64,000 nt of DNA from Acidimicrobiaceae bacterium (GCA_030837965.1 JAUTXP010000013.1:11080-75079); one strand, 5' to 3'; numbered from the stretch's first letter, positions 41,301 through 58,278 are shown. The notes: generated from the letters alone by a model not told the origin. Program-made: numbers and translations.

Positions 41301-42458
41301 TCAGCCGATGAGGGTGGTGGCCCGCGACGACGGGATCTCGGTGTAGTCCTTGATCTTCCAGTTCTGGAGGACCAGGCTCTCGACCCGCTGGTCGTAGCGC
41401 ATCTCGAAGTTCGGGTTGCCGTTCATGCGGAACGACCCCACCACCAGTGCGCCGGTCCACGTGACGTGGCCGCCGTTGACGGTCATGTCCGCACCAGGCG
41501 CATACAGGATGCCCGCCACGCTTCCCGCGTGCGACCCGTTGCCGGGCTCGATGACGCCCGCGCCGATCTTGTAGATCTGGAGGTCGACGGGGTTGCCGCC
41601 CATGTTCACGAGCGAGTCGGAGATGTCCAACGTGGTGCCCGCGGTATTGCTCGCCGCGTTGGTCATGTAGATCTTGACCGGGCCGCCCAGCGTCACCGTG
41701 CCCGAGAAGCGGACGTTGGTGCTGCATACGTACGTGCCTGCGGACAGCACGCCGGAGACCACGCCGGCCGCGCCCGGGCAGCCGCCCGGCGCCGGGCTGG
41801 TGGGAAGGGCCGGGTCAGGCGTCTGGTACGGGCCGGTCGGGTTGCTGGGCGCAGAGCACCCGCTGCAGGAGCCTTCGTTCGTGTAGAAGTACTGGCCGTC
41901 GCCGCCGCCGCCGCCGTTGACGTCGATGGCGTGGTTGGAGCCGATGTTGGCCCTGCGGTTCGGATCGATGCTGCCGTCCGGCCTGGTGGCGTGGATGTTG
42001 TCGCCGCCGTTGCCGTTGAGGCGGATGCCGTTGACGCCGAACAAGGCGAACGGGAACTGGAGCTGGCGGTAGGCGGTGGCCTGCACGCCGTGGGGCCTGC
42101 CGTTGACCGTGCCCATGGCCGTGATGGTGTACGTCTGGTCGTCCACCATGGCGGCCTTGTACTTGAAGGTCCCTGCGGCCACCGAGCCGGTCACCGGGCC
42201 AATGGTGGCCACCGAGCCCAACTGGTCGATCTTGAACAGGGCGTCGCTCACGCCCGCGTCGGCGCTGGCCAAGGCGGCGTTGAAGTCCTGGCCCTGGCGG
42301 ACGCTGTGGATGCCGGCGAGGGTGCGGGCCAGCACCGCGGTCGAGAGCATGGTCAACACCATGAGGACGGCGACGGCGACAGCCATGCTGCCGCGTTCGT
42401 CGCGCTGGTCGCGCTTGTCGTTCTCAATTCGCGGGGTTTGGGGACGCGTCAGCCGCAT
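41301..42458 (-). CDS. PilX/PilK-like large minor pilin
   Basis: Class III-like signal DERG|SMAVAVAVLMVL lacking E5, then ALASADAGV..A helix and a Gly/Asn-rich beta C-terminal domain. Confidence 0.7.
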   Translation of the reverse strand: MRLTRPQTPRIENDKRDQRDERGSMAVAVAVLMVLTMLSTAVLARTLAGIHSVRQGQDFNAALASADAGVSDALFKIDQLGSVATIGPVTGSVAAGTFKYKAAMVDDQTYTITAMGTVNGRPHGVQATAYRQLQFPFALFGVNGIRLNGNGGDNIHATRPDGSIDPNRRANIGSNHAIDVNGGGGGDGQYFYTNEGSCSGCSAPSNPTGPYQTPDPALPTSPAPGGCPGAAGVVSGVLSAGTYVCSTNVRFSGTVTLGGPVKIYMTNAASNTAGTTLDISDSLVNMGGNPVDLQIYKIGAGVIEPGNGSHAGSVAGILYAPGADMTVNGGHVTWTGALVVGSFRMNGNPNFEMRYDQRVESLVLQNWKIKDYTEIPSSRATTLIG

Positions 42459-43120
42459 CCGATTCCTCCTGGCAGTCGGTTGCGCAGCTCGACGTCGACG
42501 TTCTCGGTGAACGGCTGCGGCCCTGGGTTCGAGTCGGAGATGACGGTGACGTGCACGCGGATGGCGCAGTTGGCCACGTCGTCGGGGATGGCCAGGCCCA
42601 CCAGGTCCTGGTTGTGCTGGTTGTAGTACCGAAGGAAGGGCGTGCCCGACTCGTTGTTGCGGACTCGGGTCAGCTTGGCCGTGGTCCGCACGATGGCGCC
42701 GCCGGGGCCGGTGAGCTCCTTGCGGGTGATGATCTGGGTGGCCGGGTCGTAGACCCAGCGCACGTAGGTCTGGGGCCCGGCCGACGGGCCGAGGGCCAGT
42801 TCGAGCGAGTTGGTGTAGTCAGCGGCGGTGGCCGTCACCAGGCGCTGCATGGGGTTGGCCGAGCGGATGTCGCGGGCCATCTCCTGCAGGAAGAAGCGCA
42901 CGTTCTGCTCGTTCGACACCAACGCCTGCGTGCGCCGCTCGTGCTTGGTCAGCACCTCGAGGATGCTGAAGAACATGGCCAGGACACCCAGCAGGATGCC
43001 GCACACGACCACGACCTCGACCATGGTGTAGCCGCCTTGGCGCTTGCCTTCGGTCTTGGCTTCGCGCTCAGTCTCGTGCTCGGTCTCGTGCTCGGCGTGG
43101 CGCTCGTTTTGAATCAGCAT
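42449..43120 (-). CDS. PilW-like minor pilin
   Basis: RQGG|YTMVEVVVV prepilin motif, MARDIRSA, C-terminal VELRN. Confidence 0.8.
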   Translation of the reverse strand: MLIQNERHAEHETEHETEREAKTEGKRQGGYTMVEVVVVCGILLGVLAMFFSILEVLTKHERRTQALVSNEQNVRFFLQEMARDIRSANPMQRLVTATAADYTNSLELALGPSAGPQTYVRWVYDPATQIITRKELTGPGGAIVRTTAKLTRVRNNESGTPFLRYYNQHNQDLVGLAIPDDVANCAIRVHVTVISDSNPGPQPFTENVDVELRNRLPGGIGCG

Positions 43121-44349
43121 GTCGTCGCTCCGCTGGCCTTGACGCACACGTTGCCGATGGACGCCGTCTGGGTCGACCCGATGTAGACGGTGATGGTGTG
43201 GTTGCCCGTGCTCCACTGGGTGTTGCCGTCGAGGGTCGCCTTGTAGGACGAGCCCGACTGGAGCGTCAGGGTGGCCGTGGTCGGGCTGCTGCTGGTGGGG
43301 CTGTACCGGACGGTCAGCACGCTCGACGAGCAGTTGCCGTTCATGTTGACGGTCACGTTGACGTCGCTCAGCAGCTTGCCGCTGGAGTTCTTCTGCTCGG
43401 CCGTGGCCGGGGTGACGTTCATCGTCCCTGCCGCACAGGCCGCCGAGCTGGTGGAGGTGTTGGTGGTGGCCGACACGATGCTGGTCGGCGTCGAGCTCAA
43501 GCCGTTGGAGGCCTGGGCCCTGACCCGGAAGTAGTACGTGGTGCCGGGAGAAAGGCCCGCCACCGCGTAGCTCGTGTTGGCCGCGGGCAGCGAGCCGTTG
43601 GCCGTGGCCGCGCTGGCCATCGTGCTGTCAGGGGCGACCGAGTACTCGACGATCCAGTTGTTGACCGGAGGGTTGGAGGAGGACGGGGCCGTCCACGTGA
43701 GGTTCACCGTGGTCTCGCCGGGGACACCGGAAGGAACCGAGGCGGCCAGGTTGGTGGGGGCCGAGGGGGGGAAGGCGGCGGGCGCAGTGGTCGTCGTGGT
43801 GGACGACGCCGTAGCGCCGCGAGGACCGCCGTACGTGCCTTGGCCGCCGGGATACACGACTGAGTCCTGGCGCAGGTTGTGGCTGCCGCCGTCGTCGGTG
43901 TAGGTGACGACCACCGTGGTCCGCTTGTAGGCCTCGGTGTGGGTTGCGTCGGCGTCCATCCACACGATGTAGCGGGCCAGGTTGTAGGTGATGCCCTGCT
44001 GGACGTCCGAGCCGTTGGGTGCGACCTGGGGCGAGGTGATGGTGGACGAGGCCACGAAGTCGACGGTGGCGTGGCCCTCGTACTGCGACACGTAGCCCGC
44101 CTGGGTGGTGGCGAAGCCGAGCTGGCCGTAGGGGACGGCGTGCATGGCCTCGGTCTCGCGGATGGCCAGGCCCACGGCCGCGGTGCGACGCCCGCCCACG
44201 CCTGCGGTGCGCATGGCCCCGTAGAACACGCCCGCCACGGCCAGCATGACGATGGCCATGACCGTGAGCGCGGCCAGCAGCTCGACGAGGGTGAACCCGT
44301 CCTCGTCTCGCGTCATGGCCCGCGGACGCCGGCGCAGCAGGGACTGCAT
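43114..44349 (-). CDS. PilV-like minor pilin with fibronectin type III domain
   Basis: EDG|FTLVELLAAL prepilin motif; FN3: PSAPTNL..VNLTWTAP..Y..GLSPGTTYYFRVRA. Confidence 0.85.
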   Translation of the reverse strand: MQSLLRRRPRAMTRDEDGFTLVELLAALTVMAIVMLAVAGVFYGAMRTAGVGGRRTAAVGLAIRETEAMHAVPYGQLGFATTQAGYVSQYEGHATVDFVASSTITSPQVAPNGSDVQQGITYNLARYIVWMDADATHTEAYKRTTVVVTYTDDGGSHNLRQDSVVYPGGQGTYGGPRGATASSTTTTTAPAAFPPSAPTNLAASVPSGVPGETTVNLTWTAPSSSNPPVNNWIVEYSVAPDSTMASAATANGSLPAANTSYAVAGLSPGTTYYFRVRAQASNGLSSTPTSIVSATTNTSTSSAACAAGTMNVTPATAEQKNSSGKLLSDVNVTVNMNGNCSSSVLTVRYSPTSSSPTTATLTLQSGSSYKATLDGNTQWSTGNHTITVYIGSTQTASIGNVCVKASGATTC

Positions 44350-44356
44350 AGAGGAG

Positions 44357-44384
44357 GTATCGCCTCACCGGGCATCGACCTTGA
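44357..44384 (-). promoter_or_regulatory. Sigma-28-like promoter (leaderless) for minor pilin operon
   Basis: TCAAG-N17-CGATAC then 7 nt to ATG 44349. Confidence 0.75.
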
Positions 44385-44470
44385 GGGCCGTTTGCGCCCT
44401 TACGCGGCCATCCTCGCCCGCCCCTTCGCCTCGCATCCCTTTCTCGGCATGACAGTCACGCCTGTGAGGC

Positions 44471-44489
44471 GAACTGAGCCTGACGAGAA
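44471..44489. promoter_or_regulatory. 19-bp motif GAACTGAGCCTGACGAGAA shared with 51630-51648
   Basis: 18/19 identity between two intergenic regions, each upstream of a pilin promoter. Confidence 0.55.
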
Positions 44490-44585
44490 CGAGAGGGGCA
44501 AATGCATCCCGGTGCGTGGGCACCGAGCCCCGGACGCGGCGAGGGCGCCCGTGCGGGCGCCCTCCAGAGCCGCAGGTCCGCCCGC

Positions 44586-45293
44586 CTACTTGACGACCTG
44601 CTCCCCCTTGCAGAGTCGGAACTGGTCGTCGCCGAACAAGAAGCGCCCACACCCGTCCGCCTGGGACAGCGACACGGCCTTGAAGCTGGTGGCGAAGACC
44701 TGGCCACCAGCCACCTTGTAGACGGTGTCGTTGACCTTGACGTTGGCCACGACCTTGCCGCCCTCGCTGAACACGTCGAGCAGCGACACCCGCTGGCCCC
44801 GGCTGGGCTCAGAGCTGCCGCCCGAGCCGGTCCCGGTCGAGCCCGTGCCGGTAGAGCCGGTGGACCCAGTGCCGGTCGACCCAGTGCCGGTTGAGCCCGT
44901 GCCCGTCGTGCCGGTGCCAGTGCGGCTGGTGGTGACCCCGGTACCCGTCCCGGTCCCGGTCGAGCCCGTGCCGGTGGTGCCGGTGCCCGTCGAGCCCGTG
45001 CTGCCCGAGGTGGACGACCCGGTGGCGCCCCGCAGCGGGACGAACGGATTCTTGGTGTTGAACACCTCGAACGTCTCCGCCGCAGCCACGGGGGCAGTCG
45101 TCGCCGTCGGCGAGCGCACCGTGGTGGGCGTGCCCGACAACGTGGTGGGCGTGGTCGTGTCGTTGCTGCTGTCGCTGCCCAGCAGGGTGAAGGCCAAGAA
45201 CCCGACGATGATCACGCCCAGCACGGCGACCAGGATGCCCAGGGCGCGTCGGTTGCCAGCGGAGCCCGGCGGTGCGGGCATGGGCTCGGTCAC
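44586..45293 (-). CDS. Membrane-anchored protein with (TGSTG)n linker; PilP-like position
   Basis: N-terminal TM helix, KNPF motif, long Thr/Gly/Ser repeat, small C-terminal beta domain with two Cys; follows pilO. Confidence 0.75.
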   Translation of the reverse strand: MTEPMPAPPGSAGNRRALGILVAVLGVIIVGFLAFTLLGSDSSNDTTTPTTLSGTPTTVRSPTATTAPVAAAETFEVFNTKNPFVPLRGATGSSTSGSTGSTGTGTTGTGSTGTGTGTGVTTSRTGTGTTGTGSTGTGSTGTGSTGSTGTGSTGTGSGGSSEPSRGQRVSLLDVFSEGGKVVANVKVNDTVYKVAGGQVFATSFKAVSLSQADGCGRFLFGDDQFRLCKGEQVVK

Positions 45294-46063
45294 GGTCGGG
45301 CTCCGGTCGTCGAGGTGGTGGCGCCCGGTGCGGTCGTCGTGGTGGCGCCCGCCGCGCCCGGCGCCGTGGTGGTCGTGGCCCCGCCCGCGGCCGTGGTGCT
45401 GGTGGTCGATGGCGTGGCCGTGGCCCCTGCAAACCCGGCAGGGATGGACCGCACGAACATGCGGGCGTTGATGCTCGCCGTCAGCGCGCCGGTGTTCGGG
45501 TCGGCGTTGACGTTGAGGGCGTCGGTGACCACCAGTCGGGGCAGGCGGTCGAGCCGGTTGAGGAAGTCCATCACCTGGAAGTACCCGCCCTGCACCTGGA
45601 TCACCAGGGTGACCTCAGCAGGTGGGGTCGCCACCGCCGCGGGCGGGGTCGCAGTCGTCGCCGCCGTAGTGGGGGTCGTGCCCGACGCGGGGGCGGTGGT
45701 CGGCGTGGGCGTCACCACCGCGGTGGCCGGGGCCTTGGGCTCGCTCGGTGCAATGGACATGAAGTTGATGCCCGACTTGGTGGCCGCGTCGTTGACGTCG
45801 ACCAAGAACTGACCGAGGTTGGGCGTGTCAGGGATGGCCGTGCGCAGCGTCTCCAACTGCGCCCGGCGCAACGGTTCGGATGCCCGCACGTCGCGCAGCC
45901 GCCTGACCTGAGCCTGGAGCTGCTGCTCCTGGGCCTGGGCTGCGGCCGTTCGCTTCTTGGCCTTGTCCAGATCGCTCTTGGCCGGGCTCCACAACAGGAG
46001 GTACCAGCCCAGGAGGATCACCACCGCGGCGATGGCGGCGAAGAGGATGACGCGCCGACTCAC
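45290..46063 (-). CDS. pilO: Type IV pilus assembly protein PilO
   Basis: TM plus coiled coil, AIPDTPNLGQFL, GGYFQVMDFLNRLDRLPRLV. Confidence 0.85.
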   Translation of the reverse strand: MSRRVILFAAIAAVVILLGWYLLLWSPAKSDLDKAKKRTAAAQAQEQQLQAQVRRLRDVRASEPLRRAQLETLRTAIPDTPNLGQFLVDVNDAATKSGINFMSIAPSEPKAPATAVVTPTPTTAPASGTTPTTAATTATPPAAVATPPAEVTLVIQVQGGYFQVMDFLNRLDRLPRLVVTDALNVNADPNTGALTASINARMFVRSIPAGFAGATATPSTTSTTAAGGATTTTAPGAAGATTTTAPGATTSTTGARP

Positions 46064-47772
46064 TGCGGGCTCCCATTCGTGTAGCGGTCGATGCGTCGGG
46101 ACACGGCCTGGCTGGTGAGCCTGGCCGTCGACTGGAAGGTGACGATCTGGCTCGCCCCCTCGCCGCTCTTGGTCGAGTTGGGCACCCACAGTCCGGTGAA
46201 CTCGGTGAGGTCGCCGATGCGGAACAGCCAGCGGGCCGTCGACGTCTGGTCGAAGCCCTTGCCCTGGAACGTGATCTGGCCGATGCCCGCGGCCGCAGTC
46301 GGCGTGCCCGCGGCCACCGGCGTCCCTGGTGCCGTCTCGGCCGCCTTTTGGCCTTGGAAGCTGACCAGCCACACGTCGGCCGGGATGACGGTGGCGATGT
46401 CGTTGAACACCCGCGTCCAGGCCACGTCGTTGCGCAGCACGCCGGTGACTTGGGCTTGACGCTGCTGGAGGTCGGTCTGGAGGGTGGTCACGTCCTGGAG
46501 CCGGGCCAGTTCGGCCTGGCGCTGGGCCGCGACCTGCTCGGCCTCCCGGGCCTTGCCCTTCTCCGTTTTCACCTTGCCCTGCTGGGCCAGCCAAAGGGCC
46601 AGGAGGAGGGCGGCCACGCCGCCCACGCCCACGAACGCGGCCGCGGCCTGGCGGCGCTGCTCGCGCACCACGGCCACTTCCTGGGGCAGCAGCGAGATGC
46701 GGCGCACGCCCTTGGTCGGCTCACCGGCCAAGGCCAGGCCGATGGGCACCGTCATCAACGGCTCGTACTCGGCGAGCTGGGCCTGCGACAGGCGCACGGC
46801 ACCGATCTTCAATCCGGCCAGCGGATGAGCGGGCTCGACCCGTCCACCCAGTTGCGACTGGAGCCGCTCCATGAGACCGGGGAGGCGGCTGCCGCCGCCG
46901 GTCACCAGCACCCGCCCGATGGGCGACGACTGCGACTGGGCCAGGTAGTAGTCGAGCGAGCCGCGGATCTCCTCGACCAGCGGGCTCAGCCGATCGGACA
47001 CGACCTGGCCGGCGCGGGCCAAGGACGCGTCGCCCGAGCCGATGTCGGCTCTGCGCTTGAGGTCTTCAGCGCTGTCCAGGTCGACGTCGAGGTCGCGGGC
47101 GATGGCCTCGGTCACGTCGTCGCCCCCGACCAGCAGGACGCGCACGAAGCGGGGGATGCCCTGCTCGTGCACGACCACGTTGGTGACGCCGCCGCCGATG
47201 CACACGATGGCCTCGGCGCTGCCGTCGGTCGTGAAGGACTGGGTGGTGCGGTCGAACAAGGACCGGACCAAGGCGAAGGGGATGACGTCGACCGCGGTGG
47301 CCGACAGGCCCGCGCCCTGCACCGCGGCCAGATGGGTCCTGACCATGTCCCGCTGGGCCGCGGCCAGCAGGATGCGCATGCGGGGCTCGCCGTCCGGGCT
47401 CACCAGCTCCTCGAGGATCTGGGAGTCGAGGATGGCGTCCTCCACCGGGATGGGGATGAGTTCTTGGGCCTCGAACTGGAGGGCGGCGCGCAGGTCCTGC
47501 TCGGTCATCTGCGGCAGCTCGGCCTGGCGCACGATGACGCGCTGGTTGGCCACGCCGACCACGACCCGCTTGGTCTTGAAGCCGCCCTCGCTCCACAGCC
47601 GCTTGATGGCGGCGGACACGGCGCCGACATCGGCCACCTCGCCGTCGCGAATGGCGCCGGGGGGCAGCGTCACCTGGGCGAAGCGCACGAGGGTGGGCTG
47701 CCCGCCGACCTGGAGCTCGACGGCCCGCACTGCGTAGGTGCCGAGATCGAGTCCAACGACCCTGGTCGGCAT
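46060..47772 (-). CDS. pilM: Fused PilM-PilN
   Basis: Actin-like PilM (VGLDLG, AQELIPIP, CIGGGVT, EIRGSLDYY, TGGGS, IGLAL) continues in frame into PilN (ISLLP, TM, WTRVFNDIATVIPADVWL). Confidence 0.9.
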   Translation of the reverse strand: MPTRVVGLDLGTYAVRAVELQVGGQPTLVRFAQVTLPPGAIRDGEVADVGAVSAAIKRLWSEGGFKTKRVVVGVANQRVIVRQAELPQMTEQDLRAALQFEAQELIPIPVEDAILDSQILEELVSPDGEPRMRILLAAAQRDMVRTHLAAVQGAGLSATAVDVIPFALVRSLFDRTTQSFTTDGSAEAIVCIGGGVTNVVVHEQGIPRFVRVLLVGGDDVTEAIARDLDVDLDSAEDLKRRADIGSGDASLARAGQVVSDRLSPLVEEIRGSLDYYLAQSQSSPIGRVLVTGGGSRLPGLMERLQSQLGGRVEPAHPLAGLKIGAVRLSQAQLAEYEPLMTVPIGLALAGEPTKGVRRISLLPQEVAVVREQRRQAAAAFVGVGGVAALLLALWLAQQGKVKTEKGKAREAEQVAAQRQAELARLQDVTTLQTDLQQRQAQVTGVLRNDVAWTRVFNDIATVIPADVWLVSFQGQKAAETAPGTPVAAGTPTAAAGIGQITFQGKGFDQTSTARWLFRIGDLTEFTGLWVPNSTKSGEGASQIVTFQSTARLTSQAVSRRIDRYTNGSPQ

Positions 47773-47978
47773 CAGGAGTTGCCTCGCTTCAAGTAGGCGT
47801 TCACGTCTTCCTCGGTGAGCCGGTAGCTGCGGCCCACGCGGGCCGAGCGAAGCTCGCCGGAGGTGATGAGTCGGTAGACCGTCATCTTGGAGACCCGCAG
47901 CAGGTGCGCGACCTCAGCAACCTTCAGCCAGCGCTGCTCGGAGTTGGTGGGCACGTGGGTGGACACGTGGGTGGACAT
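47772..47978 (-). CDS. Small BldC/Xis-like (HTH_17) DNA-binding protein
   Basis: LKVAEVAHLLRVSKMTVYRLITSGELRSARVGRSYRL; TGA overlaps pilM ATG. Confidence 0.88.
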   Translation of the reverse strand: MSTHVSTHVPTNSEQRWLKVAEVAHLLRVSKMTVYRLITSGELRSARVGRSYRLTEEDVNAYLKRGNS

Positions 47979-48037
47979 GTCGGCCTCGATCTGGGCGAGC
48001 GCCGCCCGCTTTTCGGGAACTCTACGCACTCCTCGCT

Positions 48038-48164: not shown

Positions 48165-48935
48165 TCAGAGGCCGTACCAGCGGAGGATGGGGCCGCCCGC
48201 GAACACGGCCAGCACGGCGCCCGCGGCCAGGAACGGGCCGAACGGGATGCGGTCCTTGCGGCTCCTGACCTTGGCTGCGATGAGGGCCAGGCCGATCACG
48301 CTCGACGTCAAGAAGGCGAGGAACAGCCCCACGAGGACGTAGCCGACGCCGAGCCAGCCCAGGGCCACCCCGTTCAGCCCGGACAGGCGCACGTCGCCGA
48401 AGGCCATGCCCTTGGGGACGGCGAAGTGGACGAGGAACAGCAGCACGAACCCGAGGGCGCCCCCGGCCCCGGCCCGGGCCAAGTCGTCCCACCGGCCGGT
48501 CAGGGCGGCGGCGCCGACCAGCAGCACAGCCAGCCCGGCCAGCGTGGGGTACACGACGCGGATGGGCAGGAGCTGGTGATCGAGGTCGATGGCGCTCAAC
48601 ACGACGAGGCCGGCCACCCACACGAGGAAGGCGGGCAGGGCCCAGTCGGCGCCGAAGCGGGCCGCGACCGCCGCGAACAAAGCGCCGGTGAGCAATTCGA
48701 CCAGCGGGTAGCGGGCCGAGATCGGATTGGCGCAGAAGTGGCACTTGCCCCGCAGGGCCAGCCACGAGACGACCGGGATGTTGTCGATGCTGCGCAACTG
48801 GTTCCCGCAGTTGGGACAGTGCGAGCGCGGGTGCACGATCGACTCCCGGCGCGGCACCCGCCAGATGACCACGTTGAGGAACGATCCGACCAGCAGGCCG
48901 AACACCGCGCATCCGGCCACGAGGAACGCGGTCAT
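48165..48935 (-). CDS. pilD: Prepilin peptidase/N-methyltransferase (A24)
   Basis: GSFLNVVIWRVP, RSHCPNC..DNIPVVSWLALRGKCHFC, ISARYPLVEL, AIDLD, GMAFGDVRL, IPFGPFL. Confidence 0.95.
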   Translation of the reverse strand: MTAFLVAGCAVFGLLVGSFLNVVIWRVPRRESIVHPRSHCPNCGNQLRSIDNIPVVSWLALRGKCHFCANPISARYPLVELLTGALFAAVAARFGADWALPAFLVWVAGLVVLSAIDLDHQLLPIRVVYPTLAGLAVLLVGAAALTGRWDDLARAGAGGALGFVLLFLVHFAVPKGMAFGDVRLSGLNGVALGWLGVGYVLVGLFLAFLTSSVIGLALIAAKVRSRKDRIPFGPFLAAGAVLAVFAGGPILRWYGL

Positions 48936-49066: not shown

Positions 49067-49564
49067 CTACCAGCCGGTCTTCACTCCGGTGATGGTCGCC
49101 GACGTGCCGTCCTCGCCGTTGCAGGTGAGGTCGGCCTTGTAGAAGTAGGTCCCCGCGGCGCCGCCGATGGCCACTTCGAGGACGCTGAAGCTGGTACCCG
49201 ACTTCGACACCTTGCCGATGCAGACGCCGTTGTTGTCGCCCGCGGTGACCGCCGGCTTCAGGGCCACGCCCACGGCCGCGGTGGTGCCGCTGCCCGCCAC
49301 GTAGGTGAGGGCCGACTCGATGCCGGTCAGAGTGCCGACGGTGGCCGTGTAGGCCTGGTTGTCGGTGTAGAAGGTCTTCTCCGCGGTCAGCGCGTTGCGG
49401 ATGTCGGATTGCGCGGCCCGGTCCTGGGCCCGCTGGCGGGCGCCGAGGAAGGTCGGGATGGCAATGGCCAACAAGATGGCGATGATCAGCACCACGACCA
49501 TGAGCTCGATGAGGGTGAAGCCGTCCTCGTCGCGCTCCAGCCGCTTGCGCAGGGTGTGAAGCAT
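49067..49564 (-). CDS. Major type IV pilin paralog A (165 aa)
   Basis: EDG|FTLIELMVVVLIIAILLAIAIPTF; C-terminal Cys pair; SD AAAGGA. Confidence 0.95.
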   Translation of the reverse strand: MLHTLRKRLERDEDGFTLIELMVVVLIIAILLAIAIPTFLGARQRAQDRAAQSDIRNALTAEKTFYTDNQAYTATVGTLTGIESALTYVAGSGTTAAVGVALKPAVTAGDNNGVCIGKVSKSGTSFSVLEVAIGGAAGTYFYKADLTCNGEDGTSATITGVKTGW

Positions 49565-49653: not shown

Positions 49654-49749
49654 CCTCCAGGCGGCTCGGCCGGCCTTCCGTCGTCGTTGACGGTGTGGGC
49701 CCCGGAGCTTTGCGTCCCCGCCTTCCGACGGGTTTGCCATTGACAAGAG
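49654..49749 (-). ncRNA. Cyclic di-GMP-I (GEMM-I) riboswitch, copy A
   Basis: GGCAAA-CCCGTC-GGAA-GGCGGG-GACGCAAAGC...GCCGAGCCGCC matches the GEMM core GGCAAACC..GNRA..GGGACGCAAAGC. Confidence 0.9.
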
Positions 49750-49767: not shown

Positions 49768-49795
49768 GTATCGCCCCTGGCGCGCGTTGACTTGA
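49768..49795 (-). promoter_or_regulatory. Sigma-28-like promoter of pilin A cassette
   Basis: TCAAG-N17-CGATAC. Confidence 0.75.
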
Positions 49796-49865
49796 GTGCT
49801 TTTCGCGCCCAACGCGGCCGAATGACTAGGTGCTTCGAAAGCGCCTGCGCCTCGCCCCGGGACGC

Positions 49866-49915: not shown

Positions 49916-50413
49916 TTACCAGCCGGTCTTCACACCGGTGATGGTGGCCGACGTGCCGTCCTCACCGTTGCAGGTCAGGTTGGCCTTGTAGTAGTAGGTC
50001 CCGGCTGCGGTGCCGGTCGCGACCTCGAGCATGCTGAAGTTCGTGCCCGACTTGGACACCTTGCCGATGCAGACGGCGTTGTTGTCAGCGGCAACCATGG
50101 CCGGCTTCAGGACGACGCCGACCGCGGCCGTGGTGCCGTTGCCTGCGGCATAGGTCAGCGAGGACTCGATGCCGGTCAGGGTGGCGACGGTGGCCGTATA
50201 GGCCTGGTTGTCGGTGTAGTACGTCTTCTCAGCCGTGAGGGTGTTGCGGATGTCGCTCTGGGCCGCACGGTCCTGGGCCCGCTGACGGGCGCCGAGGAAG
50301 GTGGGGATGGCGATCGCCAACAGGATGGCAATGATCAGCACGACGACCATGAGCTCGATGAGGGTGAAGCCGTCCTCATCCCGCTCCAGCCGCTTGCGCA
50401 GGGTATGAAGCAT
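49916..50413 (-). CDS. Major type IV pilin paralog B (165 aa)
   Basis: First 57 aa identical to A and C; variable C-terminal domain; SD AAAGGA. Confidence 0.95.
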   Translation of the reverse strand: MLHTLRKRLERDEDGFTLIELMVVVLIIAILLAIAIPTFLGARQRAQDRAAQSDIRNTLTAEKTYYTDNQAYTATVATLTGIESSLTYAAGNGTTAAVGVVLKPAMVAADNNAVCIGKVSKSGTNFSMLEVATGTAAGTYYYKANLTCNGEDGTSATITGVKTGW

Positions 50414-50499: not shown

Positions 50500-50594
50500 C
50501 CTCCAGGCAGCTCGGCCGGCCTTCCTCTCCGCCGAGAGGGATGGGCTCCGTGGCTTTGCGTCCCCGCCTTCCAACGGGTTTGCCTTTGTCAGAG
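50500..50594 (-). ncRNA. Cyclic di-GMP-I (GEMM-I) riboswitch, copy B
   Basis: GGCAAA-CCCGTT-GGAA-GGCGGG-GACGCAAAGCCACGG...GCCGAGCTGCC; distal P3 CCTCTC/GAGAGG replaces CCGTC/GACGG. Confidence 0.9.
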
Positions 50595-50612: not shown

Positions 50613-50640
50613 GTATCGCCACCGCCATGGCCCGCCTTGA
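50613..50640 (-). promoter_or_regulatory. Sigma-28-like promoter of pilin B cassette
   Basis: TCAAG-N17-CGATAC, spacer sequence different from copy A. Confidence 0.75.
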
Positions 50641-50666
50641 GCGAATTCTCTCGATAGGGCATGACA

Positions 50667-50733: not shown

Positions 50734-51231
50734 CTACCAGCCGGTCTTGACGCCGACCGTCGGGGCGGCCGCGCCGTCCTCGCCGGAGCAGCTCAAGCTG
50801 GCCTTGTAGTAGTAGGTGCCTGCATTGGTTCCGGAGGCCACGTCGAGGACGCTGAAGTTGGCGCCCGACTTCGAAGCCTTCGAGATGCAGATGCCGTTGT
50901 TGTCACCAGCGACGGTGCCCGCCTTGAGGGCGACGCCGACCGCAGCCGTGGTGCCGTTGCCGGCCACATAGGTGAGGGCGGCCTCGATGCCGGACAGGGT
51001 GGCCGTGGTGGCCGTGTAGACCTGATTGTCGGTGTAGAAGGTCTTCTCGGCAGTCAGGGCATTGCGGATGTCGCTTTGGGCCGCACGGTCCTGGGCCCGC
51101 TGGCGGGCGCCGAGGAAGGTCGGGATGGCGATCGCCAAGAGGATGGCGATGATGAGCACGACGACCATGAGCTCGATGAGGGTGAAGCCGTCCTCATCCC
51201 GCTCCAGCCGCTTGCGCAAGGTGTGAAGCAT
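50734..51231 (-). CDS. Major type IV pilin paralog C (165 aa)
   Basis: Same N-terminus; most divergent C-terminal domain. Confidence 0.95.
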   Translation of the reverse strand: MLHTLRKRLERDEDGFTLIELMVVVLIIAILLAIAIPTFLGARQRAQDRAAQSDIRNALTAEKTFYTDNQVYTATTATLSGIEAALTYVAGNGTTAAVGVALKAGTVAGDNNGICISKASKSGANFSVLDVASGTNAGTYYYKASLSCSGEDGAAAPTVGVKTGW

Positions 51232-51311: not shown

Positions 51312-51407
51312 CCTCCAGGCAGCTCGGCCGGCCTTCCGTCGCCGTTGACGGTGTGGGCCCCGGTGCTTTGCGTCCCCGTCTCCCAACGGGTTTGCCCTTG
51401 TTCGAAG
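51312..51407 (-). ncRNA. Cyclic di-GMP-I (GEMM-I) riboswitch, copy C
   Basis: GGGCAAA-CCCGTT-GGGA-GACGGG-GACGCAAAGCACCGG...GCCGAGCTGCC. Confidence 0.9.
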
Positions 51408-51424
51408 CACTGCTCGCATGCCTG

Positions 51425-51453
51425 GTATCGGACGGTTCGCGACCACCCCTTGA
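51425..51453 (-). promoter_or_regulatory. Sigma-28-like promoter of pilin C cassette
   Basis: TCAAG-N18-CGATAC. Confidence 0.7.
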
Positions 51454-51555
51454 GCGGCGAGATGTCGAATGACTCGTTGGGACTAGCCGGTCCATAGTCA
51501 GGCCCGGTCGACAGCCCGGGCGCGCCAGTGGCCGCCCCGGAGGCGGCCAAATGAG

Positions 51556-51648: not shown

Positions 51649-51687
51649 GCGGGGCTCGGCGGGGCTCGGCGGGGTCGGCGCGGCGGG

Positions 51688-52185
51688 CTAGTTGGGCCAG
51701 GCGCTCTGCCAGCCGGGGTCGGTGATCAACGGGACCGAGCAGGTGGCGCCGCTGGGCACGACGGCCTGATAGTGGGTGCCGGTCGACGAGCCCGACATGA
51801 TGTCGCGCAGGTAGTAGCAGCGTCCGGCCTTGCTGCGGCCCACCACAACCACGGTCTGGGCCGTGCTCGGGTAGTCCTGCACCTCGATGTAGACGACGCC
51901 GGGCGCCTCGGACCCGTCGAGCGCGGAGTTGGTCCACTGGAGCGCGGGCTCCAACGTCCGCATGGCTACAGGGTCCGCCGTGTAGCTCTGCTTCTCGTTG
52001 TAGTAGACGCGCGCCGCGGTGAAGGCGTTGCGCACGTTGGACGCCACCGCCCTGTCGTTGGCCGTCTTCTTGGCCCCCATAAAGGTCGGGATGGCCACGC
52101 CCAACAGCACGGCGATGATCAGCACCACCACCATGAGCTCGATCAGGCTGAAGCCGTCCTCGGTCCCCTGCCCCCCTGCGTGCAC
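51688..52185 (-). CDS. Fourth type IV pilin (divergent, no riboswitch)
   Basis: EDG|FSLIELMVVVLIIAVLLGVAIPTF; GTG start inferred just after pilC stop. Confidence 0.88.
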   Translation of the reverse strand: MHAGGQGTEDGFSLIELMVVVLIIAVLLGVAIPTFMGAKKTANDRAVASNVRNAFTAARVYYNEKQSYTADPVAMRTLEPALQWTNSALDGSEAPGVVYIEVQDYPSTAQTVVVVGRSKAGRCYYLRDIMSGSSTGTHYQAVVPSGATCSVPLITDPGWQSAWPN

Positions 52186-52199
52186 CGGTTTCCGCCCGT

Positions 52200-53423
52200 C
52201 TACTTGATGAGCTTGATGATGTTGAACATCGGCATGTAGAGCGACACGACCATGCCGCCGACGGCGCCGCCGAGGACGACGATGAGGGCAGGCTCGAGCA
52301 GCGACGTCAACGCGGCCACGGTGGCCTCGACCTCTTGCTCGTAGAACTCGCCGATCTTGTCGAGCATGGTGTCGACCGCGCCCGTCTCTTCGCCCACGGC
52401 CAGCATCTGCGTGACCATGGCCGGGAAGATGGCGTGCTCGGCCATGCGCTTGGCGATGGGCTCGCCCTGCTTCACGCCGTCCTGCACGTCGTGCACGGCG
52501 CGCGAGGCCACGGTGTTGCCCACCGTGTCGGCCGTGATCTCCAACGACTCGAGGATGGGGACGCCGGAGCGCAGCAGCGAGGCCAGCGTGCGGGCGAAGC
52601 GGGTGAGCGCCGTCTTGTGCACGAGCTTGCCGAAGACCGGCACCTTCAGCTTGAAGGCGTCGAACACGGCCCGGCCCTTGTCGGTCTCGATCCACCGCTT
52701 GAACAAAAAGACGGACACGGCCATGAGCACCAGCACGATGGGGAAGGCGGTGACCAGCACAGAGGACACCAGCAGCAGCAACCGGGTCGGCAGCGGCAGC
52801 GTCCCGCCCAAGTCGTGGTAGAGGCCCTTGAACATCGGGACGATGAACAACAGCATGGCCGTGACGATGCACAGCACCAGGGCCAGCACCGCGACCGGGT
52901 AGGTCATGGCCGACTTGATCTTGTGCTTCAGCTCGACCTGCTTTTCGAGCGTGTCGGCCAACTGCAACAGCGTCTGGTCGAGCACGCCGCCGGTCTCGCC
53001 CGCCCGCACCATGGCGATGTAGAGGCGGCTGAACACCTTGGGATGGCGGCCCATGGCCTGGGAGAGCGACGAGCCCTTCTCCACGTCTTGGCGCACCTCG
53101 TGGACCACGCCGGCCAAGGCCTTGCTCTCGGTCTGCTCGGCCAGGATGTTCAAGGCGCGAAGCAGCGAGAGGCCCGAGTCGATCATGGTGGCGAACTGGC
53201 GGTTGAACACGGCCAGGTCCTTGAGCTTGACCTTGCCCGCGCCCATGCCAGGGATGCGCAGCTCCTTCTGGAGCCCGCCCGTGGCCTTCTTGTCGATGGC
53301 CAGCGGGACGTAGCCCATCTGGCGCAGCTTGTTGGCGACCAGCGTGGTCGAGTCGGCCTCGAGGGACCCCTCGAGCACCTTCCCCTGCTTGTCGCGGACC
53401 TTGTACTGGTAGGTCTCAGCCAT
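52200..53423 (-). CDS. pilC: Type IV pilus platform protein PilC (GspF family)
   Basis: FNRQFATMIDSG, AGETGGVL, KIKSAMTYP, FARTLASLLRSGVP, GEETG, LLEP, YMPMF. Confidence 0.96.
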   Translation of the reverse strand: MAETYQYKVRDKQGKVLEGSLEADSTTLVANKLRQMGYVPLAIDKKATGGLQKELRIPGMGAGKVKLKDLAVFNRQFATMIDSGLSLLRALNILAEQTESKALAGVVHEVRQDVEKGSSLSQAMGRHPKVFSRLYIAMVRAGETGGVLDQTLLQLADTLEKQVELKHKIKSAMTYPVAVLALVLCIVTAMLLFIVPMFKGLYHDLGGTLPLPTRLLLLVSSVLVTAFPIVLVLMAVSVFLFKRWIETDKGRAVFDAFKLKVPVFGKLVHKTALTRFARTLASLLRSGVPILESLEITADTVGNTVASRAVHDVQDGVKQGEPIAKRMAEHAIFPAMVTQMLAVGEETGAVDTMLDKIGEFYEQEVEATVAALTSLLEPALIVVLGGAVGGMVVSLYMPMFNIIKLIK

Positions 53424-53434
53424 CTCTTCGTCTC

Positions 53435-55033
53435 CTAACGGGCCCCGCCGATGAGGCGGCGGAGGTCGTCTTCATTGGCACAACGCTCGATGGCCATCTC
53501 CAAGGAGATGGCGCCTCGGCGCACCAGGTCGGCGAGCGACATGTCCATGGTCTGCATGCCGTAGCGGCCGCCTGCCTGCATGGCCGAGTAGATCTGATGG
53601 GTCTTGCCCTCACGGATGAGGTTGCGGACCGCGGGTGTGGCCACCAGCACCTCGGATGCAACGGCCCGGCCTCGGGCGTTCATCGTCGGGATGAGCTGCT
53701 GGGTGACGATGCCTTGCAACGAGGCCGCGAGCTGCACCCGCACCTGCTGCTGCTGATGGGCGGGGAACACGTCGATCACGCGGTCGACCGACTGGGGCGC
53801 GTCCTGCGTGTGCAGGGTGGCGAAGACGAGGTGGCCCGTCTCGGCCGCGGTCAGCGCGGTGGAGATGGTCTCGAGGTCGCGCATCTCGCCCACGAGGATC
53901 ACGTCGGGGTCCTGGCGCAGGACGTGCTTCAAGGCGTTGGAGAAGGAGTACGTGTCCTCCCCCACCTCCCGCTGGTTGATCACCGCCATCTTGTGGTGGT
54001 GCAAGAACTCGATCGGGTCCTCCACCGTCATGATGTGGCAGGGCTTGCGGGCGTTGATGATGTCGATCAGCGAGGCCAGGGTCGTGGACTTGCCGGAGCC
54101 GGTCGGGCCGGTGACGAGCACCAGGCCGCGGGGAAGGTCGGCGAACTGGTTGACCGAGGGCGGCAGGCCGAGGCGGTCCATGGGAACGATCTCGAAAGGG
54201 ATCACGCGCATGACCGAGCCGACCGAGTCGCGCTGGAGGAAGACGTTCACGCGGAAGCGGCCCACGCCCGGCACCGAGTGCGACGTGTCCAGCTCCAACT
54301 CGTTCTCGAAGCGCTCCCGCTGCTTCTGGGTGAGGATGGCGTAGATCATCCGCCTGATCTCCGAGCCGTTCATCATCGGGAACTCGGTGAGGGGCTTGAT
54401 CTCGCCGTGGATGCGCACGCTGGGGTGCAGGCCGACGGTCAGGTGGAGGTCGGAGCCTCCGAGGTCGACCACCCGCTCGAGCAGGTCGTTGACATGCAGC
54501 TCGCCGCGCATGCCCTCGGCGCCGAGCATGTTGGGCGCCTCGGACTGCGAGGACTCGTCGGCCACGGTGATCTCGAGGTCGCCGTCCTCCTCGGAGGCCG
54601 GGGGGCCGTACATCTGGTTCACGACCTTGCGCAGGTCGCCCCGAGTGGCCAGCGCGGCCTTGATGCTCCAACTGGTGGCCTGCTCGAGCTCGGACTTGGC
54701 GTCGGGGTTGCTGGGGTCGAGCATGGCGACCAGCAGGTCGCTGCCCTCGATGTCGACGGCCACGGCCTGGTGCTTGTGGGCCAGGGCCGCGGGGATCAGC
54801 CGGTCCAGGGTGGGATTGACGTTGCGCACGTCGAAGTCGACGAAGTCCATGCCGACCTGATGGGCGACCGCGGCGACCAGGTCCTTCTCCCCCACCAGCC
54901 CTTCGGCCAGGAGGAGTTTCGAAAGGGGAACGCCCTCGGTCGCCTCGCGGTCGAGGAGCTGTTCGAGCGTGTCCCGAGAGAGGACTTTCCGCTCAACGAG
55001 GAATTCGCCCAGTCGGCGCGAAGCTGCCTGCAT
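53435..55033 (-). CDS. pilT: Retraction ATPase PilT with extra N-terminal MshEN/GspE-N domain
   Basis: SDLHL, RFRVNVF, GPTGSGKSTT, EDPIE, RQDPDVILVGEMRD, PilT signature AVRNLIREGKTHQI and GMQTMD; ~175-aa N-extension starting RRLGEFLVE. Confidence 0.93.
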   Translation of the reverse strand: MQAASRRLGEFLVERKVLSRDTLEQLLDREATEGVPLSKLLLAEGLVGEKDLVAAVAHQVGMDFVDFDVRNVNPTLDRLIPAALAHKHQAVAVDIEGSDLLVAMLDPSNPDAKSELEQATSWSIKAALATRGDLRKVVNQMYGPPASEEDGDLEITVADESSQSEAPNMLGAEGMRGELHVNDLLERVVDLGGSDLHLTVGLHPSVRIHGEIKPLTEFPMMNGSEIRRMIYAILTQKQRERFENELELDTSHSVPGVGRFRVNVFLQRDSVGSVMRVIPFEIVPMDRLGLPPSVNQFADLPRGLVLVTGPTGSGKSTTLASLIDIINARKPCHIMTVEDPIEFLHHHKMAVINQREVGEDTYSFSNALKHVLRQDPDVILVGEMRDLETISTALTAAETGHLVFATLHTQDAPQSVDRVIDVFPAHQQQQVRVQLAASLQGIVTQQLIPTMNARGRAVASEVLVATPAVRNLIREGKTHQIYSAMQAGGRYGMQTMDMSLADLVRRGAISLEMAIERCANEDDLRRLIGGAR

Positions 55034-55040
55034 GGGAGAG

Positions 55041-55068
55041 GTATCGGCTCGCCAACCGGGTGCCCTGA
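55041..55068 (-). promoter_or_regulatory. Sigma-28-like promoter (leaderless) for pilT-pilC-pilin
   Basis: TCAGG-N17-CGATAC (GCCGATAC), then 7 nt to ATG 55033. Confidence 0.75.
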
Positions 55069-55165
55069 GCAGGTTTCCTCAGGCCTCTGGAGGACATGCC
55101 CTGCGGCTTCCACGGGCCCTGTCCTCCAGACGGAGCGGGCCAGGGCGCTGGGAGGCCCCCTCCAT

Positions 55166-55196
55166 CTTTTCCACAGCACCTGCTGCTGTGGAAAAG
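55166..55196. repeat. 31-bp palindromic REP-like element, copy 7
   Basis: Exact copy between pilB and pilT. Confidence 0.95.
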
Positions 55197-55221
55197 ATGG
55201 GGTGTCAGGCGGGGTAGAGGT

Positions 55222-55251
55222 CGGGGCGGGGCGGGGCGGGGCGGGGCGGGG
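55222..55251 (+). repeat. (CGGGG)6 tandem repeat
   Basis: Six perfect 5-mers abutting the pilB stop. Confidence 0.9.
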
Positions 55252-56937
55252 CTAGGCCACGACCCGGAGGATCTCCTCCAGGGAGGTCTTGCCGTTGCGG
55301 ACCTGGATGAGGCCCGCCTGGCGCAGCGTGAGCATCCCCTGGGCCATGGCCATCTTCTTGATGTCCTCGGAGTGCTCCCGGTCCACGATCAGGCGCTCGA
55401 TGTCCTCGGTCACGGTCAGCACCTCGTGGAGGGCGAACCGGCCCAAATATCCGGTCTTGCCACAGGCCGAGCAGCCCACGGCCCGGAACAGCTCGGGCTG
55501 CTCCTCGTCGGCGAACAGCTCGACGTCCCAGCCCGCGGACTGGAGCTCGCTGGCCGTGGCCCGGTACGGCTCCCTGCACTTGTCGCACAGCTTGCGGGCC
55601 AGGCGCTGGGCCACGATGCAGTCCAGGGCGCTGGCCACGAGGAAGGGCTCGACACCCATCTCGATGAGCCGGGTGGGCGTGGTGGCCGCGTCGTTGGTGT
55701 GCAGGGTGGACAGCACGAGGTGGCCGGTGAGGGCGGCCTCGATGGCGATGGTGGCCGTCTCCTTGTCCCGGATCTCGCCCACCAGCACGATGTCGGGGTC
55801 GGACCGCAGGATCGAGCGCAGCGCGGCCGCGAAGGTCATGCCCGCCTTGTTGTTGACCTGGACCTGGTTGATGCCGTTCAGCCGGTACTCGACAGGGTCC
55901 TCGACGGTGATGATGTTCTTCGAGTCCTCGTTGAGCACGTTCAGCGTGGCGTACAGGGTGGTCGACTTGCCCGAGCCCGTGGGCCCCGTGACCAGGATCG
56001 TCCCGTACGGCTTCTTGTAGGACTGCTCGAACCGCTCGCGCGCCGACTCCAGGAACCCCAGGTCGGTGAGCTTCAGCAGCGCGGTCGACTTGTCCAGGAT
56101 TCGCATGACGACCTTCTCGCCGTACACCGTGGGCAGGGTGGCGACACGCAGGTCGACCGCCTTGCCCCCGATGACCACGTTGATGCGGCCGTCCTGGGGG
56201 ATGCGCCGTTCGGCGATGTTGATCTCGGCCATGATCTTGAGGCGCGAGATGATCCCGGACTGGATGTTCTTCGGCGGGCGCATCTTCTCGTGCAGCACGC
56301 CGTCGATGCGGTACCGGACCCGCACGTCCTTCTCGCTGGGCTCGATGTGGATGTCCGACGCCCGCTCGGCCACCGCCTGGGTGATCAACAGGTTGACCAG
56401 CTTGACGATGGGCGCGTCCTCGACGACCTCCTTGATGTTGGAGAGGTCGTCGTCCACCTCGTACTCGCTCGACGCCTGGGCCGTGATGTTCTCGGCCTCG
56501 CCGTCCATGCGGGTGTGGCGGTCGATGGCGGCCAGGATCGAGTCGGGCGTGGCCATGATGACCCGCACGTCGCTCTTGGTGATGGTCCGGATGTCGTCGA
56601 TGGCGAAGACGTTGCCGGGGTCGGCCATGGCCAGGATGAGCTTGCCGTGCTCCCAGCCCACAGGCAGCGCCTGGTAGCGCCGGGCCAGTGACTCGCTGAT
56701 GAGGCCCACGGCGCTGGAGTCGATGCTGTAGTCGGCCAGGTCGACGTACTCGAGCCCCAACTGGGGGGCGAGGATGCGGTACAGGTCACCTTCGGTGACC
56801 AGGCCCCGCTCGATCAGGATGCGGCCGAGGAACTTGCCCGTCTTCGACTGTTCGTCGAGCGCGTCGTCCAGCGCCTCTCTGGAGAGGAGTCCTGCCGCCA
56901 CGAATTGGGCGCCGAGGAGGCGGTTTTCATCCGACAT
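55252..56937 (-). CDS. pilB: Extension ATPase PilB (GspE family)
   Basis: MshEN-like N-terminus, ASDIHIEP, RYRIDG, ERRIPQDG, GPTGSGKSTTLY, LRSDPD, tetracysteine Zn motif. Confidence 0.96.
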   Translation of the reverse strand: MSDENRLLGAQFVAAGLLSREALDDALDEQSKTGKFLGRILIERGLVTEGDLYRILAPQLGLEYVDLADYSIDSSAVGLISESLARRYQALPVGWEHGKLILAMADPGNVFAIDDIRTITKSDVRVIMATPDSILAAIDRHTRMDGEAENITAQASSEYEVDDDLSNIKEVVEDAPIVKLVNLLITQAVAERASDIHIEPSEKDVRVRYRIDGVLHEKMRPPKNIQSGIISRLKIMAEINIAERRIPQDGRINVVIGGKAVDLRVATLPTVYGEKVVMRILDKSTALLKLTDLGFLESARERFEQSYKKPYGTILVTGPTGSGKSTTLYATLNVLNEDSKNIITVEDPVEYRLNGINQVQVNNKAGMTFAAALRSILRSDPDIVLVGEIRDKETATIAIEAALTGHLVLSTLHTNDAATTPTRLIEMGVEPFLVASALDCIVAQRLARKLCDKCREPYRATASELQSAGWDVELFADEEQPELFRAVGCSACGKTGYLGRFALHEVLTVTEDIERLIVDREHSEDIKKMAMAQGMLTLRQAGLIQVRNGKTSLEEILRVVA

Positions 56938-56948
56938 GACTTAGGAAT

Positions 56949-56976
56949 GGATCGGCACGTCGGGGCGGCGGCTAAG
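56949..56976 (-). promoter_or_regulatory. Sigma-28-like promoter for pilB
   Basis: CTTAG-N17-CGATCC (GCCGATCC); weaker -35. Confidence 0.5.
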
Positions 56977-57033
56977 GGCCATTTTCCGCGAACTCTTCGC
57001 GCCACCCCGTCGGGCTGCGTTGACCCGCGCAGA

Positions 57034-58218
<1,185 letters not shown>

Positions 58219-58250
58219 GGCTGACCTCCGGGCAACGACGACCTTCGCAA

Positions 58251-58278
58251 CCATCGGCAGGATCGGCCCTCGACTTCA
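58251..58278 (-). promoter_or_regulatory. Sigma-28-like promoter at head of pilus locus
   Basis: TGAAG-N17-CGATGG (GCCGATGG). Confidence 0.6.

Follow-up and report, generated by a model that had tools for sequence, protein, structure and literature searches.

The stretch of DNA analysed here (hereafter the window) comprises 64,000 nucleotides (nt) of an Acidimicrobiaceae bacterium (GCA_030837965.1, JAUTXP010000013.1:11080-75079). On its minus strand, at positions 41301-58281, it carries a type IV pilus locus. We consider it likely that this locus is under stacked control by the messenger cyclic di-GMP (c-di-GMP), exerted through WhiG/RsiG-dependent promoters, riboswitches on the pilin mRNAs and an MshEN motif on the extension motor PilB. 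In the draft genome (3.55 Mb, 88 contigs, 70% G+C, 97.9% complete; C numbers denote contigs), the window is C51:11080-75079. The closest pilT loci in public genomes come from metagenome bins labelled Acidimicrobiales, Acidimicrobiia or Actinomycetota, and the public runs that hold at least one third of the stretch's sampled words are recorded as soil metagenomes.

The genes of the locus span 58254 to 41301 and are flanked by aroE (58351-59289) and aroC (40082-41242). Assigned by Pfam and NCBIfam profile matches, they encode, in this order, a DUF4388 protein, PilB, PilT, PilC, pilin 1, pilins 2-4, PilD, a helix-turn-helix (HTH) protein, a PilM-PilN fusion and PilO, followed by a 235-residue protein, a minor pilin with an FN3 domain, a pilin-like open reading frame (ORF) and a DUF7305 protein (Table 1). 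PilB, PilT, PilC, PilD, PilM/N/O and the pilins represent a type IVa pilus set by these matches. The secretin family PF00263 has no match in the 97.9% complete genome, and no flagellin was found there. On this evidence, the locus encodes a type IVa pilus without a secretin and belongs to an Acidimicrobiia-like soil actinobacterium. This agrees with an initial interpretation made from the window alone (the sequence-only reading), which had described a monoderm pilus locus with DUF4388, pilB, pilT, pilC, four pilins, pilD, HTH, pilMN and pilO genes and without pilQ. Two of its finer assignments hold in part: the gene it called PilP-like exists as the 235-residue ORF, which has no Pfam or NCBIfam match and belongs to the locus by position only, and one of its three minor pilins, the FN3 protein, is confirmed by a family match, the only one of the three to be so, the pilin-like ORF having no Pfam or NCBIfam match at all.

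Promoter-riboswitch cassettes of the major pilins

Pilins 2, 3 and 4 are each preceded by one c-di-GMP-I aptamer, which ends 83, 88 and 91 nt, respectively, before the start codon. The GEMM-I riboswitches proposed for the three major pilins are borne out by RF01051 scores of 54.4-59.0 bits (gathering score 35 bits). Because these scores lie far above gathering, and because all three aptamers read GCAAAG like the RF01051 consensus, where that of the variant family RF03167 (gathering score 59 bits) reads GCGAAG, they are, as judged by sequence, canonical c-di-GMP-I aptamers.

The arrangement recurs among related Acidimicrobiia loci. With the three window aptamers as the basis of a covariance model, a search of 80 related pilT loci yielded 23 aptamers in 20 of them, all on the pil strand, with two cassettes in each of three relatives. 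Where 1.5 kb or more are available downstream of pilT, 20 of 67 loci have an aptamer, and with 8 kb or more, 12 of 41. A pilin start codon follows 61-96 nt downstream of all 26 aptamers (23 orthologous and three from the window). In the alignment of the 23 orthologues, which was fitted to the model and is therefore biased towards the structure, 95.3% of the cells pair and 13 of 23 base pairs have changed on both sides; none of 500 shuffles did as well, and slid controls paired in 25-43% of cells. By this measure the aptamer helices covary strongly, and the two-hairpin fold is kept by compensatory changes.

All 26 aptamers are also preceded by a common promoter-like motif, CTCA(A/G)G, a spacer of 14-16 nt and (G/C)(G/C)CGAT(A/G)(C/G), with 15-21 nt between the end of its -10 element and the aptamer in every case. 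Among the 23 orthologues, the core is matched at eight of eight positions in 14, at seven in 7 and at six in 2. The motif fits the sigma-28/WhiG consensus forms CTCA-N16-17-GCCGA, CTCA-N16-17-GCCGAACT and T(A/C)AA-N16-GCCGATAA, as quoted from the available part of a recent preprint (bioRxiv 10.64898/2026.01.14.699351). A position matrix was derived from the 23 orthologous sites alone and run over the genome and over three random genomes of first order. It finds 17 sites of 20 bits or more in the former, compared with 1, 0 and 1 in the latter, and 33 sites of 18 bits or more, compared with 13, 9 and 8. Five of the 17 lie in this locus (20.6-24.6 bits), namely in the three pilin leaders and before the genes for PilT and the FN3 minor pilin. 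At 16 bits or more, the window has five sites on the pil strand and none on the opposite strand. Likewise, 78 loci (1.20 Mb) contain sites of at least 18 bits 65 times on the pil strand, a number that can include the 23 training sites, and three times on the other. The pilT site recurs at the same place with at least 14 bits in 38 of the 78 loci and with at least 18 bits in 13.

Of the roughly eight sigma-28-like promoters originally proposed, five are therefore strong and two weak. The latter are the candidates before the DUF4388 and HTH genes, and a pilB site first read by eye was rejected at less than 9 bits. Since the ATG of both pilT and the FN3 minor-pilin gene comes 7 nt after the end of the -10 element, these two mRNAs are probably leaderless. 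The -10 element of the DUF4388 candidate overlaps the ATG at 58254, and the start of this gene may therefore be a GTG about 36 nt downstream, after GGAGG.

The three window leaders share a mean identity of 84% from promoter to start codon, and pilins 2-4 are 82-83% identical among themselves (37% to pilin 1); by these identities, they are a tandem triplication of the whole cassette. A simple terminator scan gave 2 sites for 2.0 expected, and the leaders contain no canonical terminator with a T tract; control is therefore probably exerted by way of translation, of RNA stability or of termination by Rho. With a transcription start 7 nt past the -10 element, the distance seen at the leaderless genes, the mRNA would open with GCGAGC, a stretch able to pair with a conserved GCUCGC some 25-45 nt ahead of the Shine-Dalgarno sequence. 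This long-range helix pairs in 90.9% of cells and barely varies, a pattern that is consistent with the helix without proving it. A second possible duplex, between the segment after the aptamer and that before the Shine-Dalgarno sequence, does better than shuffled sequences at p<0.05 in 9 of 22 leaders, with four short ones left aside, and occurs in the window and its closest relatives. Folds of single leaders, with z-scores of 0.17, -0.05 and -0.56, are uninformative.

All three window leaders (within 49562-51426) have a reading frame that is open from within the aptamer into the pilin, with a GTG 8 nt after GGAGG in the 3' strand of P1. In the relatives examined, a stop codon closes this frame shortly upstream of the ATG, which is why we take the ATG as the pilin start.

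Outside the locus, the genome has three more c-di-GMP-I aptamers, C82:55602-55691, C64:6288-6371 and C6:50749-50836 (L085, L086 and L089). From translation alone, the genes behind them appear to encode a secreted glycosidase-like protein, a secreted repeat protein and a paralog of the FN3 minor pilin. The C82 aptamer is preceded by a sigma-28-type site of 17.8 bits whose -10 element ends 19 nt upstream, and the pairing of promoter and riboswitch therefore extends beyond the major pilins.

Putative regulators and motor ATPases

The sequence-only reading had asked for whiG, rsiG and GGDEF/EAL genes elsewhere in the genome, and candidates for all of them are present. The WhiG equivalog scores 388.3 bits against NF004935 (cut-off 343), and by our reading its K-x3-G-R spacing matches the c-di-GMP-contacting residues K57, G61 and R62 given in the accessible text of PMC8325347. 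GGDEF domains have 27 matches and EAL domains 18. An exact scan for the published RsiG motif in six frames gave three matches, none in a plausible gene; a relaxed scan filtered by codon bias yielded a 179-residue RsiG homologue on contig C83. Over residues 16-178, this protein matches, at E=5.7e-15, a chain of 6pfj that the entry labels 'AmfC protein' and that we take to be the RsiG of Streptomyces venezuelae. It also matches the chains named RsiG in 7lq2, 7lq3 and 7lq4 (E=3.1e-05 to 4.6e-05). A modelled complex of this homologue with WhiG and two c-di-GMP molecules scores 0.81, compared with 0.12 for the best control, a mark that 51 of 78 complexes of known structure and 2 of 108 mismatched pairs reach. 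At least 84% of contacts are shared between runs, with a partner pLDDT (predicted local distance difference test) of at least 80. As relatives of this pair have already been solved, the score may reflect likeness or memory only.

The sites of at least 18 bits elsewhere in the genome outline a predicted regulon. They precede two ORFs holding GGDEF and EAL matches and, as judged from first residues without a family scan, several response-regulator-like ORFs. Read in the same way over their first 60 residues, a 573-residue ATPase-like ORF with a near-consensus MshEN-like N-terminus follows a site of 20.5 bits at about 17357 of C64, and a 209-residue ORF resembling a DUF4388 domain follows one of 18.7 bits at about 18409 of C10. 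In this composition, the predicted regulon resembles the WhiG regulons described in the available parts of the published work.

MshEN is the c-di-GMP receptor domain of MshE, PilB and PilF (PMC5013675 and PMC11731258, as far as these texts were accessible), and an MshEN-like domain had been proposed for both motors of the locus. At the level of the fold this is correct: PF05157, which covers the C-terminal subdomain and not the ligand-binding helices, matches both proteins within residues 60-147 only (PilT with 58.2 bits, residues 61-147). NF053729, the 53-position NCBIfam model of the c-di-GMP motif itself (cut-off 38 bits), is passed by PilB with 54.5 bits over residues 8-59 and narrowly failed by PilT with 37.8 bits over residues 7-59. 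We read the extended MshEN consensus of PMC11731258 in the 24-residue form that the residue numbers in its accessible text imply. In our own count, PilB agrees at 20 of 22 positions and PilT at 16. As in MshE, PilB and PilF, the PilB of this locus has two 24-residue motifs with a 5-residue spacer, a layout and spacing that PilT shares. Judged by these matches, PilB carries an MshEN-type c-di-GMP motif, through which it would bind the messenger.

The PilT domain is a different case. In an alignment of 81 N-domains (80 related loci and the window), the glycine at I-10, the glutamine at I-24 and the glycine at II-3 are each found in none of the sequences, which counts against a c-di-GMP tier on the retraction motor, while many other motif positions are invariant. 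To judge by this pattern, the PilT N-domains form an MshEN-like subfamily that is conserved but whose site has been remodelled; binding of c-di-GMP is possible. In two respects PilT thus departs from what the accessible texts describe for MshE, PilB and PilF: an MshEN-like domain also sits on a PilT-family retraction ATPase, and across the clade other residues stand in place of the consensus G, Q and G. The word 'PilT' is not mentioned in the accessible text of PMC5013675, and none of the papers listed in a literature search deals, to judge by title and opening of the abstract, with an MshEN domain on PilT. Among the 150 matches listed, near full-length ones to this long PilT form come from at least 24 of the 200 further genomes that were sampled from the phylum, or 25 when the unpublished genome G001 is included. 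The locus thereby points to a widespread form of PilT with an MshEN-like N-domain, of which our searches found no description.

Probable stacked c-di-GMP control and its alternatives

Together, these features suggest how the locus might work. Five or more transcription units would start at sigma-28/WhiG-type promoters of the form CTCA(A/G)G-N15-(G/C)(G/C)CGATAC, and, if Streptomyces and Rubrobacter are a guide, WhiG would be sequestered by RsiG at high c-di-GMP. Each of the three duplicated major-pilin genes would form its own cassette, consisting of promoter, GCGAGC 5' end, c-di-GMP-I aptamer, a conserved leader of 83-91 nt, Shine-Dalgarno sequence and pilin. Finally, the extension motor PilB would read c-di-GMP via its MshEN motif. 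We infer that WhiG reads the pil promoters, that RsiG responds to c-di-GMP in this organism and that the RNAs of the window and PilB bind it. The three tiers of transcription, pilin mRNA and extension motor are well supported, and a PilT tier is doubtful. Of the several c-di-GMP-reading devices that the sequence-only reading saw converging on the locus, the promoters, the aptamers and the PilB motif accordingly stand, and the one on PilT is in doubt.

Each of these tiers has a known counterpart. According to the available text of PMC8325347, RsiG-(c-di-GMP)-WhiG controls the type IV pilus cluster of Rubrobacter radiotolerans, and the preprint cited above (bioRxiv 10.64898/2026.01.14.699351) extends this control by prediction to other actinobacterial families. 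Our locus resembles the R. radiotolerans system, as presented there, in having several sigma-28-type promoters inside the pilus cluster, WhiG and RsiG, no flagella, and GGDEF/EAL genes in the same predicted regulon. Unlike that system, it has a long twin-motif RsiG with imperfect motifs, a -35 element that reads CTCA(A/G)G in place of TAAA, an additional sigma-28 paralog, and three promoters that drive riboswitch leaders. For the riboswitch tier, the closest parallel is pilA1 of Clostridioides difficile, where an ON-acting c-di-GMP-II riboswitch precedes the primary pilus operon (PMC11656802, in its accessible part). In both cases a c-di-GMP riboswitch lies before a pilin gene in a bacterium without an outer membrane, but here it is of class I, one per pilin, in three monocistronic cassettes without a canonical terminator. 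Since all tiers are known in kind and the control of pilus genes by WhiG has been published (PMC8325347; bioRxiv 10.64898/2026.01.14.699351), presenting the locus as a candidate new system was an overstatement.

What appears to be new is the stacking of known kinds of c-di-GMP receptors on one machine, and the conservation of the promoter-riboswitch-pilin cassette in a class of soil actinobacteria that has received little study. The cassette would be a natural case of a sigma/anti-sigma switch and a riboswitch acting with the same ligand on the same transcript, and WhiG-controlled pili would be extended to Acidimicrobiia-like bacteria. The word 'riboswitch' occurs neither in the accessible text of PMC8325347 nor in that of the preprint, and 'Acidimicrobi' is absent from the main text of the latter. 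Four papers, three of them reviews to judge by their titles, bring together riboswitch, WhiG, c-di-GMP and pili. Our searches found no published description of the stacked cassette, nor any paper joining c-di-GMP, riboswitch, pilin and Acidimicrobi, although the supplements, which stayed closed to us (Tables S4-S6 of the preprint and the supporting information of PMC8325347), may hold relevant tables and might list Acidimicrobiia targets.

Besides the altered PilT domain, several observations weigh against this picture. The genome encodes a second, divergent FliA/WhiG-like sigma factor at G000:C24:17855-18508 (L002, 1339-2265, minus), which falls short of the family cut-off (176.8 against 189.6 bits). 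Its ORF lies 190 nt downstream of a sigma-28-type site of 21.7 bits. Either sigma factor may thus read the pil promoters; the site could mean autoregulation or a cascade from WhiG. The -35 element CTCA is nearer to the WhiG1 consensus than to the TAAA of WhiG2, and in the available text of the preprint WhiG1 is the flagellar type without RsiG. The published RsiG motif is E(X)3S(X)2R(X)3[Q/H](X)3D, present twice (PMC8325347, accessible text). The homologue has A...S..R...Q...D and E...S..R...H...N, that is, 8 of 10 positions with H allowed, and an asparagine replaces one of the two guanine-specifying aspartates. Moreover, the DUF4388 and HTH promoter candidates are weak and that of pilB fails. 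Thermodynamic modelling of Shine-Dalgarno and start-codon accessibility gave no consistent direction for the riboswitches over 24 leaders (two leaders of locus L050 were left out): with the aptamer enforced, the Shine-Dalgarno sequence was more open in 6 of 24 and less open in 4. Lastly, the RNA libraries examined gave no evidence of transcripts from this organism's own locus. The contigs of metatranscriptome run X12 cover the 5' ends of pilins, two aptamer bins and the core of PilT, but most are 90-95% alike to the locus (786 of 1239), and they derive for the most part from relatives, with DNA possibly among them; run X13 contributed 8 pieces.

The most serious alternative, which we hold to be possible though not the likelier course, is a coherent simple switch. 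It would combine OFF riboswitches with a PilT N-domain that is merely structural or used for docking, and low c-di-GMP would both free WhiG and permit pilin translation. Low messenger would then mean pili, a response sharpened by double repression and without a band-pass. The altered binding motif of PilT fits this view, as does the RsiG/WhiG logic, by which WhiG is shut off at high c-di-GMP (PMC8325347, in the text available). A hint at the riboswitch sign comes from the FN3 minor-pilin paralog on contig C6, whose start codon lies only about 10 nt after its c-di-GMP-I aptamer. In such an arrangement, ligand binding usually hides the ribosome site. On the other hand, enforcing the aptamer raises the unpaired probability of the start codon of leader 1 from 0.33 to 0.75, which hints at an ON switch, with little or no change in leaders 2 and 3. 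Furthermore, PilB-type MshEN motors of Vibrio cholerae are reported to need c-di-GMP for extension (PMC11656802, accessible part), and for that reason pili made at low messenger only would fit poorly.

Less probably, transcription is not tied to c-di-GMP at all. The CTCAAG-N15-GCCGATAC promoters would in this case be read by the second sigma-28 paralog, or by a WhiG that escapes a degenerate RsiG, and the riboswitch and PilB tiers alone would sense the messenger. The presence of that paralog with the same promoter type upstream, the WhiG1-like -35 element and the imperfect RsiG motifs all speak for this possibility. Against it, we note that the genome contains both a genuine WhiG equivalog and an RsiG homologue of full length, that WhiG retains the spacing of its c-di-GMP contacts, that the modelled complex favours binding of the two proteins, and that the predicted regulon includes GGDEF/EAL genes, as in published WhiG regulons. 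We consider this reading unlikely.

An incoherent two-input gate, with the PilT N-domain as a new nucleotide receptor set against a c-di-GMP-activated PilB, seems to us quite improbable. Were it true, high c-di-GMP would shut the promoter and open an ON riboswitch, pilin would be made only in a middle band or as a transient, and one messenger would set both pilin supply and motor direction. The sequence-only reading had put forward threshold or band-pass control and a motor direction that reads the messenger. In both it overreaches: the former depends on the sign of the riboswitch, and the latter would need c-di-GMP binding by PilT, in which the three consensus residues are missing clade-wide.

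That the aptamers sense a different cyclic dinucleotide is very improbable: two of them do score best against RF03167, barely above its gathering score (Table 1), but this near-tie probably reflects their G+C-rich helices, all three have an A in place of the consensus G of that family, and their RF01051 scores far exceed the threshold. To our knowledge, no ligand has been established for RF03167. This family, the c-di-GMP-I-GGC variant, is not mentioned in PMC7266159.

Further features of the locus

Table 1. Genes, promoters and aptamers of the pilus locus in window coordinates, listed in the direction of transcription
Feature	Position	Strand	Evidence and remarks
Weak promoter candidate of DUF4388 gene	58251..58281	-	15.7 bits; in gap after aroE
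DUF4388 protein	57034..58254	-	PF14332 69.5 bits, residues 16-116
PilB extension ATPase	55252..56937	-	T2SSE 479.8 bits; PF05157 83 bits
pilT promoter	55041..55071	-	23.0 bits
Long PilT retraction ATPase, 532 aa	53435..55033	-	TIGR01420 483.4 bits (cut-off 319.1), residues 181-522
PilC platform protein	52200..53423	-	T2SSF 218.1 bits, two stretches
Pilin 1	51688..52185	-	N_methyl motif; without riboswitch; begins directly after pilC
Cassette 1 promoter	51425..51456	-	20.6 bits
Aptamer 1	51315..51406	-	RF01051 54.4 bits
Pilin 2 (major-pilin paralog)	50734..51231	-	N_methyl motif 35.3 bits
Cassette 2 promoter	50613..50643	-	24.6 bits, best site of the genome
Aptamer 2	50502..50593	-	RF01051 59.0 bits; RF03167 60.2 bits
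Pilin 3	49916..50413	-	82% identity to pilin 2
Cassette 3 promoter	49768..49798	-	22.7 bits
Aptamer 3	49656..49747	-	RF01051 58.9 bits; RF03167 60.4 bits
Pilin 4	49067..49564	-	83% identity to pilin 2
PilD prepilin peptidase	48165..48935	-	A24_N_bact 129.2 bits; Peptidase_A24 38.1 bits
Weak promoter candidate of HTH gene	48038-48067	-	12.6 bits
Small excisionase-family HTH protein	47772..48029	-	HTH_17 62.1 bits; TIGR01764 64.4 bits
PilM-PilN fusion	46060..47772	-	PilM_2 167.1 bits; weak PilN match C-terminally
PilO	45290..46078 (start approximate)	-	PilO 45.9 bits
235-aa protein with Thr/Gly/Ser repeats	44586..45293	-	Position only
Minor-pilin operon promoter	44357..44387	-	23.3 bits
Minor pilin with FN3 domain	43114..44349	-	N_methyl and fn3 matches
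Pilin-like ORF	42449..43027	-	Hydrophobic N-terminal segment, read from translation
DUF7305 protein, last gene of the locus	41301..42458	-	PF23981 45.1 bits

Three of the proteins call for a remark. PilB scores 651.8 bits against TIGR02538, slightly below the cut-off of 675.65. The DUF4388 protein has a long tail rich in Pro, Ala, Glu and Lys, and no NCBIfam match. The HTH protein reaches just 22.7 bits against the BldC family, for which the cut-off is 77.

A near-invariant palindrome of 31 nt, with 13-bp arms and a 5-nt centre, is AT-rich despite the 70% G+C of the genome. In the window it lies at about 58311-58343, 55165-55197 and 48132-48164, after the stop codons of aroE, pilB and pilD. 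Five further copies are found on contig C51, and others on many other contigs, including contig ends. As it is a genome-wide repeat, we rejected the idea that its copies in the intergenic gaps are promoter or operator elements or pilus-specific sites. The 9-nt core has 371 strand matches in the genome, mostly both arms of one element, which corresponds to about 170 copies. Typically the palindrome stands right after a stop codon and is followed by a run of G, and within the pilus locus it stands between transcription units; by its form and setting, it looks like a REP-type (repetitive extragenic palindromic) element or a terminator or insulator hairpin.

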